The translations under genes were made by a program, and so were the position numbers. This document shows, one piece after another, positions 18,425 to 21,743 of a stretch of DNA of 64,000 nucleotides. The stretch comes from Nitrospirae bacterium GWF2_44_13 (GTDB taxonomy: Bacteria > Nitrospirota > Thermodesulfovibrionia > Thermodesulfovibrionales > UBA1546): contig MHEE01000015.1 of assembly GCA_001805105.1 (NCBI GenBank), positions 208,778 through 272,777 of the forward strand. The letters are read 5' to 3'. The notes below the pieces were generated by a model that did no database searches, was not told where the DNA came from, and saw only the letters and a list, made by a program, of their open reading frames with translations. Within the stretch, counting starts at the first letter, position 1, and each line of letters begins with the position of its first letter.

Positions 18425-19486
18425 TTGACTTTATCTATTATGCTGCCAATAAATTCTAAAAGAAGAGAGATTAAAGTAAGAGAGTCAATTCTCAGGGGCG
18501 TCTATGAAAACAACCTGAAAATAATAGGAAAGCAGTCTGCTGAATCGCCATGGAGAATCCCGCTTTTTCTGAAAAAAATGTTTCTTTTCCTCTCCGTAGG
18601 GTTACTGACTATTTTGGGACAAGGCAGCTATCTGAATCTGACTTTGTTTCCGGAAACTCAGATGACAGCAAGCATTATGCCTCAAAAAAATCATCCAATG
18701 CCTGATGAAAACTCAATAAGTTCTTCGGATTATAAGGAATTCTTCAGCGGTTACAGCGTACCGTTAAGCCGCATGTTCGGCCTTGGAGTAAAGACAATAA
18801 TGATAGATGCCGGACACGGCGGTGATGACCCTGGCACTATAGGAAAGATGGGTACTAAGGAAAAAGAAATTACGCTGGACATAGCAAAAAAACTGAAAGA
18901 GCGTCTTAAAAAACACGGCGGCTATAATATCATTATGACTCGTGAAGATGACATAACTATTCCTCTTAACAAAAGGGTGGAATCAGCGCAGGCAAGCAAA
19001 GCGGATATTTTTATCTCTATTCATCTCAATTACCTCCCATCTAAACCCATAAACATAATAGAGACTTACTATTTCGGGCCTTCATCCGATGTCAAAACGC
19101 TGAAGCTCGCACAACAGGAGAATGCAGGCTCGCAATACGGCTTAAGCGATTTTAAAGACATGATTGAAAAAATGGGTAAAACGCTAAAACTTCAGGAATC
19201 CAAAGAACTGGCGTCATTAATACAAAAAAACCTTTTTATAAACAGCAGGAAGAAAAACGGGAACATCCATAACTTCGGCATAAAGAGAGCGCCGTTTGTA
19301 GTTCTTCTCGGTGTAGACGTTCCCGCCGTTCTCGCCGAGGTTTCATGCCTCAGCAACAGGCAGGAAGAGATAGAACTCAACACCAAGAGCCACAGGGAAA
19401 ATATAGCGCGCTATATCGAGGCCGGCATATTGGACTATTTAAATAAAGGAGAAGCAAATTATGAAACTAAAAGAAACACAGAGTGA
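18425..19486 (+). CDS. N-acetylmuramoyl-L-alanine amidase (Amidase_3, AmiC-like) with an N-terminal membrane anchor
   Basis: IMIDAGHGGDDPGT...ISIHLN...RAPFVVL zinc-amidase motifs. The start is uncertain: TTG at 18425 or ATG at 18440. Confidence 0.85.
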   Translation: MTLSIMLPINSKRREIKVRESILRGVYENNLKIIGKQSAESPWRIPLFLKKMFLFLSVGLLTILGQGSYLNLTLFPETQMTASIMPQKNHPMPDENSISSSDYKEFFSGYSVPLSRMFGLGVKTIMIDAGHGGDDPGTIGKMGTKEKEITLDIAKKLKERLKKHGGYNIIMTREDDITIPLNKRVESAQASKADIFISIHLNYLPSKPINIIETYYFGPSSDVKTLKLAQQENAGSQYGLSDFKDMIEKMGKTLKLQESKELASLIQKNLFINSRKKNGNIHNFGIKRAPFVVLLGVDVPAVLAEVSCLSNRQEEIELNTKSHRENIARYIEAGILDYLNKGEANYETKRNTE

Positions 19487-20492
19487 AGGCAATATTTTAT
19501 TCGTCGGGATTGACTTAGGAACATCAAGAAGCTCCATCTCTGCGAGCAACGGCACAAGGCAGTGGATTGAAAGCTATGTTGGCTGGCCCAAAGATTTCAT
19601 ATCATTGCAGGTAGTCGGCAAACCTGTCCTTTTCGGTTCTGAAGCTCTTAAACACAGACTTTCGCTTGACCTCTGCAGGCCGCTTGAACACGGGGTAATC
19701 AAAGAGGGCATAGAGAGAAATGAAGAAGCCGTAAAAGAGATCATAAAATATCTTATTGAGCTTGCAAAGCCTGCGGCGGGACAGAAAATATACGCAGTGG
19801 TAGGAGTGCCGGCTGATACGCTTAAAGTAAACAAGCTTGCCATAAGAAGGGCAGTGTCGGAATTTGCACACTCATTGATGGTTGTATCAGAGCCTTTTGC
19901 GGTGGCTTACGGACTGAGTCTCTTAAATAATTCACTTGTGATTGATATCGGCGCAGGGACAACTGACCTCTGCATCATGCACGGCGCTATCCCTTCAGAT
20001 GAAGACCAGAAGACTATTGTGAACGCAGGCGATTATATTGACGAACAGCTTTACAGTTATCTTACGGAGAAATACCCGAATTCAAAGTTTAATAAGAATA
20101 TGGTCAGGCAGTTCAAGGAGAAATACAGCTTTGTAAGGGATGTGCCAGGCGACATACACGTAGAAATACCTGTTGACGGCAAGCCTGTCATGCACGATAT
20201 CAAAAACGAAGTTAAGCGCGCCTGCGAAAGTATTCTTCCGGCGCTTGTAGAAACTACGGCCGAGATGATAGCGAGGTTTGACCCCGAATTCCAGATAAAG
20301 ATAAAGAACAACATTGTGCTCGCAGGAGGTGGAAGCCTGATAAGAGGGCTGCGCGAATATCTGCAGGACGCGCTGAAAGAATATGGGCCATGCAATGTAA
20401 CAAATGTTCAGGACCCGCTGTTTGCAGGCTCAGACGGAGCGGTGAAACTTGCGCAGGACATGCCGGCAAAATACTGGGAGCCGTTACAATAG
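19461..20492 (+). CDS. MamK-like bacterial actin
   Basis: Actin-fold motifs GIDLGTS, VSEPFAVAYG, VIDIGAGTTD and VLAGGGSLIRGL. Segments I recall as MamK-typical are also present: VGWPKD, VVGVPA, NAGDYIDEQL, FKEKYSFV, and the C-terminus DPLFAGSDGAVKLAQDMPAKYWEPL. SD AAGGAG lies upstream, and the gene overlaps the amidase gene by 26 nt. Confidence 0.75.
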   Translation: MKLKETQSEGNILFVGIDLGTSRSSISASNGTRQWIESYVGWPKDFISLQVVGKPVLFGSEALKHRLSLDLCRPLEHGVIKEGIERNEEAVKEIIKYLIELAKPAAGQKIYAVVGVPADTLKVNKLAIRRAVSEFAHSLMVVSEPFAVAYGLSLLNNSLVIDIGAGTTDLCIMHGAIPSDEDQKTIVNAGDYIDEQLYSYLTEKYPNSKFNKNMVRQFKEKYSFVRDVPGDIHVEIPVDGKPVMHDIKNEVKRACESILPALVETTAEMIARFDPEFQIKIKNNIVLAGGGSLIRGLREYLQDALKEYGPCNVTNVQDPLFAGSDGAVKLAQDMPAKYWEPLQ

Positions 20493-20513
20493 AATTAAGA
20501 GGGGTGATTTTTC

Positions 20514-21743
20514 ATGACCGGTAAAACAATTCTTGCAATTGACACGGACGCCGAAACAACGCAGCAGATTGTATCAGTGCTTGAAGCGGAAGATTATCTT
20601 GTTTTTACTGCTCCAAACGGAAACATTGGAATCGCAATGGCAAAGAAAGTAAACCCTTCCCTGATATATATAAATCCTGCCTTGTCAGGCACAAGCGGGT
20701 TAGAGGTCTGCAAGACAATACATAGCACAGAGCAGCTTAAAGATATTCCTATAGTTGTACTCTCTTCGTTTGAAGGCGCAATGGATCAGCGCTATGCCGA
20801 AGCATACGGCATTGTTGATTCGCTTAAAAAACCCTTCACCCCCGAAGAACTCATCTCAAAAACAGGGAATGTCCTGTCAATGGAATATGGCGATATTCAA
20901 ACAAATACTTTTCAGGATTTTCCGTCAGGAGAGGCAGAAGAAACAATTGGATTTGGCGCGGCTGAAGAAACTGTTGTGATGAAACAGCAGATGCAGGAAC
21001 GGCAAACAATGCCTGCTGAAGAATTTGACGCCTCAGAGAAAACCATGGTAAAAATGGAGGAAGAAACACCGGAGCCTTTTGAAAATACTCTGGTTGAAAA
21101 CATTCCGCCTGCGGAAACTGAAAAAGCTTATAAATTTAAAACGAGCATAAGGAGGAGGGGTATGAGAAGCAGATTATTTGTTCCTCTTATCGTGGCGCTT
21201 GTAATAATTGTAATCATCGGAGCAGGGGTTGGGTTCATCCTTTACAAAGAGAGCCTGCTTCCATGGCTGAAACCGTCAGCAGCAACTCCGCTTAAGCCGG
21301 CAGCCAAAGAAACAGCAGCAGTTGCGCCCAAAGAACAGGAAAAACCTGCCGGTGAAACTGCAGAAAGTAAGCCTCCTGCCGGAGCACCTGCTGCGTCTGT
21401 TGCTCCTACAACACCAACAGAAAAGCCGTCAGCGGTTAAGACTGCACCTGTTGCAAAGACTCCAGCGCCGAAACCTGAAACAAAACCATCCGCCTTAGGC
21501 AGAGGAAAAATAATTTATCATGTCCAGCTCGGAGCATTTAAAAATTCGGCAAATGCGGATGCCCTTGCCAAAGATTATAAAGCCAAGGGCTATGAAACAT
21601 TTATACAAAAAAGCTCCGGAAAGGATAAGGAACCACTTCACAGGGTTCTAATCGGCAAATTTGAGAATAAGAAAGAGGCTGCCGCACTTGCAAAAAATAT
21701 TGAAGCAAAAGAAAAGGCAAAGGCGGTTATCTTCAAGGAATAG
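20514..21743 (+). CDS. Pseudo-receiver / acidic linker / single TM / Pro-Ala-rich linker / C-terminal SPOR-domain protein
   Basis: The REC fold has Asn in place of the phospho-Asp (LIYINPALSG). The TM segment is LFVPLIVALVIIVIIGAGVGFIL. The SPOR-like C-terminus is YHVQLGAFKNSANADALAKDYKAKGYETFI...HRVLIGKFENKKEA. Confidence 0.75.
   Translation: MTGKTILAIDTDAETTQQIVSVLEAEDYLVFTAPNGNIGIAMAKKVNPSLIYINPALSGTSGLEVCKTIHSTEQLKDIPIVVLSSFEGAMDQRYAEAYGIVDSLKKPFTPEELISKTGNVLSMEYGDIQTNTFQDFPSGEAEETIGFGAAEETVVMKQQMQERQTMPAEEFDASEKTMVKMEEETPEPFENTLVENIPPAETEKAYKFKTSIRRRGMRSRLFVPLIVALVIIVIIGAGVGFILYKESLLPWLKPSAATPLKPAAKETAAVAPKEQEKPAGETAESKPPAGAPAASVAPTTPTEKPSAVKTAPVAKTPAPKPETKPSALGRGKIIYHVQLGAFKNSANADALAKDYKAKGYETFIQKSSGKDKEPLHRVLIGKFENKKEAAALAKNIEAKEKAKAVIFKE

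Follow-up and report, generated by a model that had tools for sequence, protein, structure and literature searches.

What does a MamK-type actin do where no magnetosome genes accompany it? The question is raised by a locus in the 64,000-nucleotide (nt) stretch of contig MHEE01000015.1 (positions 208,778 to 272,777, assembly GCA_001805105.1) of Nitrospirae bacterium GWF2_44_13, hereafter the window, in which an actin-fold gene lies between the genes for a cell-wall amidase and for a protein ending in a SPOR domain. An earlier note on this DNA, made from the sequence alone, had described a tight, probably co-translated trio and had suggested that a MamK-family filament was recruited to septal peptidoglycan remodelling or cell separation. 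Our analysis demonstrates that the amidase and the actin form a conserved gene pair across bacterial phyla, that the actin belongs to a clade of its own within the MamK family, and that the amidase carries a conserved, predicted cytoplasmic peptide ahead of its membrane anchor. These findings suggest that the amidase-linked actin module is a so far undescribed scaffold inside the cell, which in non-magnetic bacteria of many phyla would determine the site of wall cutting.

The conservation of the arrangement was followed from both genes. A scan of 185,579 species genomes with the actin yielded 231 relatives, the best 80 of which (62-93% identity) were examined; a scan of metagenomes with the amidase yielded 490 relatives, and among the best 80, which were examined, 70 had at least 150 nt of downstream sequence. 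Since sampling went by similarity, remote members are under-represented. An Amidase_3 homolog lies directly upstream of the actin and on the same strand in 79 of the 80 genome loci, the exception having only 35 nt of upstream sequence, and the actin lies directly downstream of the amidase in 70 of the 70 metagenome loci with room for it. The pair spans at least six phyla, its carriers being Nitrospirota (Thermodesulfovibrionales), Thermodesulfobacteriota and Syntrophaceae, Rokubacteria, Acidobacteriota and Aminicenantes, Gammaproteobacteria, an Azoarcus metagenome-assembled genome (MAG), and Desulfobulbaceae. When the open reading frames (ORFs) of 81 loci were clustered, the only recurrent families were the actin, the amidase, and the receiver/SPOR protein. 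This arrangement is far beyond chance, and its conserved core is the two-gene pair of amidase and actin. The earlier note had proposed a survey of gene neighbourhoods, with a linkage not conserved in related genomes as a finding against its idea; because the pairing is essentially obligate in both directions and across phyla, the linkage is conserved. Of the trio that it had described, the amidase-actin part is retained, while the SPOR gene proved frequent and not universal.

The junction between the two genes is conserved as well. In the window, the 3' end of the amidase gene and the start of the actin gene overlap by exactly 26 nt (19461-19486), and a GGAG (19448-19451) lies 9 nt 5' of the actin ATG (19461). 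An overlap of stop and start, implying coupled translation as had been supposed, is found in 78 of 79 loci, with modes at -32, -29, and -17 nt. The stop of the actin gene is separated by 21 nt from the start of the SPOR gene, which is preceded by AGGGG, and a simple scan listed no terminator-like site on the + strand at either gene junction, its single + strand match being inside the SPOR gene. The gene scpA, which had been noted immediately upstream, is indeed there in the window; as a conserved neighbour it failed, and it was rejected as a member of the module because it is adjacent in only 7 of 81 loci.

The linkage also reaches beyond the close relatives of the window actin. A divergent actin, P0122 (51% identical), has an Amidase_3 gene directly upstream in two loci (L081 and L082), and the still more distant P0203 (33% identical) is accompanied in L088 by an amidase homolog (E 5e-49) with a 1-nt overlap. 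Other branches of the MamK family have different contexts or none: L085 is without an amidase, L086 lies in a che cluster, and the actin of L091 is beside a secretin and a kinase. For P0123, P0126, P0127, P0132, and P0240, the contigs were too short to show an informative context.

The window actin is a member of the MamK sequence and fold family and not of MreB, ParM, or FtsA. It scored 420.5 bits with the NCBIfam MamK model NF040964 (cutoff 400) and stayed below the cutoffs of the sister models, namely BeeR NF053558 (219 bits, cutoff 530), MreB (88 bits, cutoff 293), and FtsA (24 bits, cutoff 176). Its top matches in the PDB were three AMB-1 MamK entries, aligned over the full length (5JYG, E=1.6e-89), with BeeR (2e-41) and MreB (2e-16) lower. 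An AlphaFold2 (AF2) model built on an alignment of 54 sequences had a mean predicted local distance difference test score (pLDDT) of 92, and Foldseek ranked the MamK filament subunit 5LJV_A first (TM-scores 0.92/0.97, root-mean-square deviation 1.2 Å over 325 residues), again with BeeR and MreB lower. The nucleotide-binding motifs GIDLGTS, DIGAGTTD, and AGGGS are conserved and line up with their AMB-1 MamK equivalents. In the alignment with magnetosome MamKs, residues D18, G20, P145, F146, D162, G164, T167, D169, G289, and G291 are invariant, and E144, the catalytic glutamate in SEPF, is at least 90% conserved. Because the NCBIfam and PDB searches, the AF2/Foldseek comparison, and the catalytic residues all agree, we assign the protein to the MamK family. 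The earlier note had arrived at a MamK-like protein by recognizing four actin-fold nucleotide-binding motifs and the strings VGWPKD, NAGDYIDEQL, FKEKYSFV, and, at the C-terminus, DPLFAGSDGAVKLAQDMPAKYWEPL; the motifs are invariant or nearly so, the strings are present and align with their AMB-1 MamK counterparts, and the NCBIfam score, the PDB ranking, and Foldseek all support the call. The actin shares 41% identity with AMB-1 MamK, 45% with P0129, a MamK adjoining MamI in a magnetosome cluster, and 34% with BeeR. No membrane-binding (amphipathic) helix was found in the protein sequence of the actin.

A neighbour-joining tree was calculated from 197 non-redundant family members (343 columns, 100 bootstraps) with BeeR as the outgroup. 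The amidase-linked actins, together with one 50%-cluster representative, formed one clade with a bootstrap value of 99, and the MamKs of Alphaproteobacteria and Magnetococcales formed another with a value of 65; the backbone between clades had a support of 1-15%. The phylogeny that had been proposed as a check therefore places the actin with the MamK family as its own clade. At 36 positions, residues that are fixed in the amidase-linked clade differ from those of the alphaproteobacterial and Magnetococcales MamKs, and P0129 falls elsewhere in the tree than the amidase-linked clade. Clade-specific residues of the actin include W35, W42, F46, H174, and H245. The window actin has no magnetosome gene context and stands in a clade separate from the MamKs of magnetotactic bacteria; among the 46 larger ORFs of the 64-kb window that were scanned, no magnetosome family was matched, in agreement with the earlier claim that no magnetosome genes are near the actin. 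The NCBIfam MamK score does not track magnetosome context: AMB-1 MamK scored 543, P0128, which is not in a mam cluster, scored 411.6, and the MamI-adjacent P0129 scored 357, under the cutoff of 400.

The upstream partner is an amidase of the AmiA/B/C type. Its best sequence matches in the PDB were E. coli AmiC (4BIN, 3e-32), AmiA (8C2O), and Bartonella AmiB (3NE8), and Foldseek placed AmiA and AmiC on top when queried with an AF2 model. An insert of about 60 residues (about residues 213-275) is covered only by the alignments with AmiC, AmiA, and AmiB, while those with CwlV, LytH, and CwlD end near residues 213-227. In 48 homologs, H126, E141, H195, and E300 do not vary, nor do the insert residues E227 and N228. 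From the alignment with AmiC 4BIN and general knowledge of these enzymes, we take H126, E141, H195, and E300 to be the zinc ligands and the catalytic glutamate. The catalytic, zinc-binding, and insert residues being invariant, enzyme activity is under selection. In AmiB and AmiC, the insert of AmiA/B/C-type enzymes makes up the autoinhibitory helix, and LytM factors displace that helix (see also PMC12440217). Judging from its sequence, the catalytic domain of the window amidase is probably autoinhibited. The enzyme scored far below every cutoff of the NCBIfam AmiA, AmiB, and AmiC models, and a Pfam scan found no match to an AMIN domain in it.

In the place of such a targeting domain, the amidase has a conserved N-terminus. 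The ORF was given a TTG start at 18425; the N-termini of homologs align from the methionine at 18440, and this ATG is the probable start of a protein of 348 amino acids. The first ~40 residues carry the consensus K/R-x-x-I-L-R-G-V-Y-E-(D/E)-N-L-x-I-I-G-K (ILRGVYE[DE]NLxIIGK), in which, among 48 homologs, Y22 and N25 are invariant and I17, L18, G20, E23, L26, and G30 are at least 90% conserved. The motif is kept from Nitrospirota to the gammaproteobacterial, Aminicenantes, and Desulfobulbaceae loci, and the divergent amidase linked to P0122 retains it as ALLQQAVYNNVDVIKGR, with the core VYxxN. AF2 predicted, with low confidence, a helix at residues 4-26 over the motif. Positive charge is strongly biased across the hydrophobic core, the homologs having a mean of 5.9 lysines and arginines in the 20 residues before it vs 1.15 after it. 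A Tat signal was considered and rejected as a general property, since a twin arginine occurs in 18 of 66 homolog N-termini and a strict Tat-like motif in none. The simplest reading of these sequence features is that the N-terminus is an N-in signal-anchor, which would keep the conserved helix cytoplasmic and place the enzyme in the periplasm. As a separate observation, about 50 residues that are charged, rich in Ala, Glu, and Arg, and by eye reminiscent of a coiled coil lie between the transmembrane anchor and the catalytic domain of the P0122-linked amidase (L081, 4857-5996), at the place where the window amidase has a disordered linker.

The third gene encodes, in this order, a cytoplasmic pseudo-receiver, an acidic linker, a transmembrane segment, a periplasmic linker rich in Pro, Ala, and Lys, and a canonical C-terminal SPOR domain, and the transmembrane segment at residues 221-244, after RRRGMRSR, makes it bitopic and N-in. 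The receiver domain is a pseudo-receiver, as had been proposed: the phospho-acceptor position 54 is Asn in the window protein and is neither Asp nor Glu in 38 of 42 homologs (N18/K12/R4/S3/D2/E2, with the single letters followed by the number of homologs). By analogy with characterized SPOR domains, which bind amidase-generated denuded glycans (PMC6895207), the protein would be expected to bind denuded glycans and to localize to the septum. A SPOR gene lies directly downstream of the actin in about 48 of 81 genome loci and in 45 of 50 metagenome loci. It is absent beside the pair in the Rokubacteria, Aminicenantes, gammaproteobacterial, and Desulfobulbaceae loci. At loci without it, the downstream genes are mutually unrelated (adenylate kinase, a holin-family gene, methyltransferases, PrkA, and a Ser/Thr kinase), and in one locus a SPOR-TPR gene lies 290 nt away. 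The SPOR gene is thus a frequent accessory and not part of the core. On the chromosome of Nitrospirota bin746 (L066, CP070669.1, 7036-7791), a protein with a receiver (REC) and a PilZ domain follows the actin by 3 nt in place of the REC-transmembrane-SPOR protein. Because of this replacement, the receiver domain may be the part that is tied to the actin, with a possible cyclic di-GMP input.

We lean, with a little more confidence than doubt, towards an envelope-spanning module in which a MamK-family filament docks the tail of the amidase and positions or regulates the periplasmic enzyme, and the SPOR protein reads its product. The MamK-family actin would polymerize in the cytoplasm and, having no membrane-targeting helix of its own, would be tethered to the inner membrane by docking the N-terminal helix of the amidase. 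This docking is proposed because the actin is without a membrane helix and the only proteins co-inherited with it are two bitopic ones that act on the wall or bind it. Conversely, that Tyr and Asn are invariant in the cytoplasmic peptide of an enzyme that is periplasmic argues for a specific protein partner, and the sole co-inherited cytoplasmic protein is the actin. With the AmiA/B/C-type, probably autoinhibited catalytic domain in the periplasm, the filament would set where, and perhaps when, stem peptides leave the peptidoglycan, and it would take over the role that the periplasmic AMIN domain has in AmiB and AmiC. Where the SPOR protein is present, its pseudo-receiver would likely be a second filament contact or a regulator, and its SPOR domain would bind the denuded glycans made by the amidase, giving a product-sensing loop like that of the E. 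coli amidases, FtsN, and FtsA; the protein might stabilize or report sites of past amidase action. Most likely, the output would be wall remodelling that is localized, be it in separating daughter cells or in some other polar or lateral event. The idea of septal action and cell separation rests on the roles of AmiA/B/C and SPOR proteins in E. coli. Since amidase/SPOR pairs also mark poles in Sinorhizobium and act in polarity (PMC7822825), septal action is, by this analogy, only plausible.

Several points weigh against such a module. The AF2 model of the amidase has a pLDDT of 65, which is moderate, and the motif region is of low confidence. The motif helix is amphipathic and could lie on the membrane or serve export. 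The SPOR gene is missing next to the pair in ~40% of the genome loci, so that a SPOR partner cannot be essential in cis. Finally, what we say of polymerization, of the binding of the peptide by the filament, of control over the amidase, and of the place in the cell where the module would act is inferred.

The gene order could also reflect co-expression without physical coupling. The actin would then have an independent cytoplasmic job, such as the positioning of DNA, an organelle, or an inclusion, or an MreB-like control of shape, the operon would be shared for co-regulation, and the N-terminal helix of the amidase, having nothing to do with the actin, would lie close to the membrane or serve in export. 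The amphipathic motif and the position of scpA in the window fit this explanation, as do the other MamK-family branches, whose quite different contexts (no amidase in L085, the che cluster in L086, the secretin and kinase in L091) indicate that the family is functionally plastic. However, scpA is a neighbour in 7 of 81 loci only, a pairing that is obligate both ways across phyla with a conserved overlap is typical of the subunits of one complex, and the invariant Tyr and Asn of the cytoplasmic peptide point to a specific partner, for which the actin is the only co-inherited cytoplasmic candidate; we consider co-expression alone unlikely. In a reversal of the proposed coupling, the bitopic amidase and the SPOR protein would be peptidoglycan-anchored tethers for a filament with some other cytoplasmic cargo, and catalysis would be secondary. 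MamK-type filaments need adaptors to reach membranes, this actin has no amphipathic membrane helix, and SPOR domains are wall-binding modules, all of which would suit a tether. Yet the catalytic, zinc-binding, and insert residues of the amidase are invariant and no candidate cargo gene is co-conserved in the 81 clustered loci, which makes this reversal improbable in our view.

Two further explanations were weighed, and both seem to us very improbable. If the host were a cryptic magnetotactic bacterium, the actin, comparable to AMB-1's MamK-like protein, would be its second MamK and would serve a magnetosome island elsewhere in the genome; the actin does pass the NCBIfam MamK cutoff, and Thermodesulfovibrionia include magnetotactic members. 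The score, however, does not follow magnetosome context, no mam, mad, or man family occurs in the 64-kb window, and only the three module genes recur across the 80 genome loci. The module is also found in Rokubacteria, Aminicenantes, Syntrophaceae, and an Azoarcus MAG, its actins form a separate clade (bootstrap 99) with 41-45% identity to magnetosome MamKs, and the MamK that does adjoin MamI is placed elsewhere in the tree. A mobile lysis or defence cassette, phage-derived or acting in abortive infection, would consist of an anchored endolysin-like amidase controlled by an actin-like ATPase. Such a cassette would agree with the matches of the amidase to PHROG endolysin families, with flanking genes that differ between loci, and with the holin-family gene downstream in one locus. 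The PHROG matches, however, cover only the generic N-terminal half of a domain that belongs, with its regulatory insert, to the AmiA/B/C housekeeping type, and 2.9 million viral contigs yielded 0 relatives of the actin or the amidase vs 231 matches in genomes and 490 in metagenomes. PADLOC returned nothing for the amidase or the SPOR protein and a weak, partial match (E 6.5e-06) for the actin, and the composition is not anomalous.

A broader and more tentative proposal, which we regard as doubtful though worth stating, is that amidase-linked MamK actins are a third actin-based wall machine beside the MreB elongasome and the FtsA divisome, and that wall remodelling was perhaps the ancestral job of MamK, with magnetosome positioning as a later exaptation. 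The machine would have a dynamic filament in the cytoplasm that guides a membrane-anchored amidase from within, and it would be widespread in anaerobic and sediment lineages, namely Thermodesulfovibrionia, Syntrophia, Desulfobulbia, Rokubacteria, and Aminicenantes. Wall remodelling is possibly ancestral because the amidase linkage is found in two branches that are far apart, the window clade and the branch of P0122 and P0203.

Like the earlier note, which knew of no description of the arrangement, we found no paper linking MamK with an amidase, AmiC, or SPOR, within a literature search whose coverage of subscription journals is incomplete. As cited in a preprint (bioRxiv 10.1101/682252), MamK homologs in non-magnetotactic bacteria have been noted since 2013 (Lefevre 2013), and such homologs have also been noted in the literature for Beggiatoaceae. 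The gene mamK is nevertheless still used as a marker for magnetotactic bacteria, and its non-magnetotactic homologs are without an assigned function. The NCBIfam MamK name is now given to amidase-linked proteins, whereas a genuine magnetosome-cluster MamK falls under the cutoff; since the score is no guide to magnetosome function, surveys of MAGs should not count the name as evidence of magnetotaxis. The module offers a concrete, testable function for a large and widespread MamK subfamily and predicts an interaction surface, the 18-residue cytoplasmic motif with its invariant Tyr and Asn. It also suggests how amidases can be targeted without an AMIN domain, and it bears on the origin of the magnetosome cytoskeleton.

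Further arrangements in the MamK family are recorded here in their own right. Fourteen proteins (P0125, P0127, P0130, P0131, P0134-P0137, P0141-P0144, P0146, and P0153) formed one clade with a bootstrap value of 100 and have long N-terminal extensions, so that the actin domain begins at residue 190-900; locus L087 holds one of them. The extensions are low-complexity and partly heptad-like by eye, and common to them are a conserved start, KxxFxEWxxxxG, and a basic stretch, KSRFSxRK, that directly precedes the actin domain. P0166 (768 residues) is a fusion of an N-terminal FtsZ-like tubulin domain with a C-terminal MamK-family actin domain and falls inside the clade that holds the alphaproteobacterial and Magnetococcales MamKs. 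In L086 (1-4507), the MamK-family gene of P0140 lies in a chemotaxis cluster with the order CheA/CheW, CheC, CheD, actin, an ORF, and CheC, and in L090 (2592-8525) a CheD gene and an HDOD/HD gene are upstream of the MamI-adjacent P0129; these two loci hint at a recurrent link between actin and chemotaxis in the family. In L092 (6103-11077), from the branch of P0150, an ORF of more than 1940 residues without a Pfam match follows 25 nt downstream.

The layout of the window locus is given in the table below. Four co-directional + strand ORFs, identified from the ORF list and Pfam, make up the cluster: scpA, the Amidase_3 gene, the actin-fold gene, and the receiver/transmembrane/SPOR gene. The coordinates, the 26-nt overlap, the 21-nt gap, and the upstream position of scpA that had been reported for it all hold on re-reading.

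Table. Coordinates of the amidase-actin module, its parts, and its immediate neighbours (positions in the 64-kb window).
Feature	Position	Strand	Evidence
scpA	17633-18394	+	PF02616, 8e-40
Bitopic AmiA/B/C-type N-acetylmuramoyl-L-alanine amidase gene	18425-19486	+	PF01520, 5.4e-44; PDB and Foldseek matches
Predicted cytoplasmic N-terminal motif of the amidase, RESILRGVYENNLKIIGK, residues 14-31 from M at 18440	18479-18532	+	Conservation in 48 homologs; predicted helical
Predicted single transmembrane anchor of the amidase, N-in/C-out	18566-18625	+	Hydrophobic core, residues 43-62; AF2 helix 43-59
Periplasmic Amidase_3 catalytic domain	18797-19432	+	Pfam stretch 125-336 of the TTG-start ORF
AmiA/B/C-type regulatory insert inside the Amidase_3 domain	~19076-19264	+	PDB sequence alignments
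Translational-coupling junction: Shine-Dalgarno, actin ATG, 26-nt overlap	19448-19486	+	Sequence reading
MamK-family actin-like ATPase, 343 amino acids, amidase-linked subfamily	19461-20492	+	NF040964, PDB, AF2, tree
Bitopic pseudo-receiver/transmembrane/SPOR accessory protein, 409 amino acids	20514-21743	+	PF00072, 7.6e-15; PF05036, 3.1e-15
Pseudo-receiver domain of the SPOR protein	20529-20861	+	PF00072
Transmembrane segment of the SPOR protein, residues 221-244	21174-21245	+	Preceded by RRRGMRSR
SPOR domain, C-terminal, residues 335-403	21516-21722	+	PF05036
MarC-family gene, convergent, ends the cluster	21745-22356	- relative to the cluster	ORF list

The neighbourhood in the window is one of housekeeping genes, with CODH/ACS, DsrAB-like, and MutS genes and genes of thiamine and fatty-acid synthesis. 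On the - strand at 12985-15077, a T2SSE/MshEN secretion ATPase comes before a small protein that has a double zinc ribbon and a tail rich in Lys and Glu, and the same pair flanks the module in L001. On the + strand at 22416-23594, a protein of 361 amino acids weakly resembles SMC proteins, and by eye its C-terminus has a hydrophobic stretch; the sole 12/12 sigma-70 consensus of the region (22416-22445) precedes it. As L002 is the only related locus that has this protein too, it probably has nothing to do with the amidase-actin module. A protein of 1071 amino acids at 59917-63132 on the - strand consists mostly of WD40 repeats (12 stretches, 469 bits) and lies among otherwise housekeeping genes.

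The module can be compared with several known systems. The magnetosome MamKs of AMB-1 and M. gryphiswaldense (5JYG, 5LJV) share its sequence family, fold, and ATPase motifs, and the window actin probably needs a membrane-protein adaptor just as they have MamJ, McaA, and McaB; it differs from them in its 41% identity, its separate clade, the absence of a magnetosome gene context, and a partner that is a wall amidase and not an organelle protein. BeeR of Verrucomicrobiota (8R2N) is likewise a MamK-related actin of non-magnetotactic bacteria, but it belongs to a separate family (219 bits vs a cutoff of 530; 34% identity) and forms a three-stranded tube with a disordered N-terminal domain, with no amidase link reported (PMC11929497). 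On the enzyme side, S. aureus LytH-ActH and C. difficile CwlD-GerS, whose amidases were matched by Foldseek (7TJ4, 7RAG), are also membrane-anchored Amidase_3 enzymes with a dedicated partner, on which their activity or placement depends. Unlike the window amidase, LytH and CwlD are without the AmiA/B/C insert, and they are partnered by a polytopic membrane protein or by a lipoprotein, which act within the membrane or outside it, unlike the cytoplasmic filament proposed here.

The loop of FtsA, FtsN, and AmiA/B/C in E. coli is, by analogy, a second parallel. In E. coli, FtsA contacts FtsN. As in that loop, an actin-fold protein is cytoplasmic, a bitopic SPOR protein has a cytoplasmic part, and the amidase is of the catalytic type that has a regulatory insert and produces denuded glycans. 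Unlike FtsA, however, the window actin is of the MamK type (24 bits with the FtsA model vs a cutoff of 176); unlike the E. coli amidases, the window amidase is membrane-anchored with a cytoplasmic peptide and has neither an AMIN domain nor a conserved Tat signal; and unlike in FtsN, the cytoplasmic part of the SPOR protein is a pseudo-receiver, with all genes of the module in one operon.

The closest parallel that is experimentally established is BacA-LmdC of Hyphomonas neptunium and Rhodospirillum rubrum, in which a bactofilin recruits the bitopic M23 peptidase LmdC through the cytoplasmic region at its N-terminus, the two genes being adjacent in 226 species (PMC10945521). In both systems, the gene of a polymer adjoins that of a single-pass hydrolase across phyla (79 of 80 and 70 of 70 loci here), and, like LmdC, the window amidase has a short conserved cytoplasmic N-terminus, a transmembrane helix, a periplasmic linker, and a C-terminal catalytic domain. 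The polymer here, unlike BacA, is by its sequence a nucleotide-hydrolysing actin of the MamK family and not a bactofilin, the enzyme is an Amidase_3 and not an M23 endopeptidase, and its tail is predicted to be helical whereas that of LmdC is a β-hairpin. The genes overlap here, a SPOR protein that would read the product is often attached, and the binding of the tail by the polymer, which is established for LmdC, is proposed for the window amidase. If our proposal is true, the principle by which a polymer in the cytoplasm determines the place of a bitopic wall hydrolase extends from bactofilins to actins and from endopeptidases to amidases.

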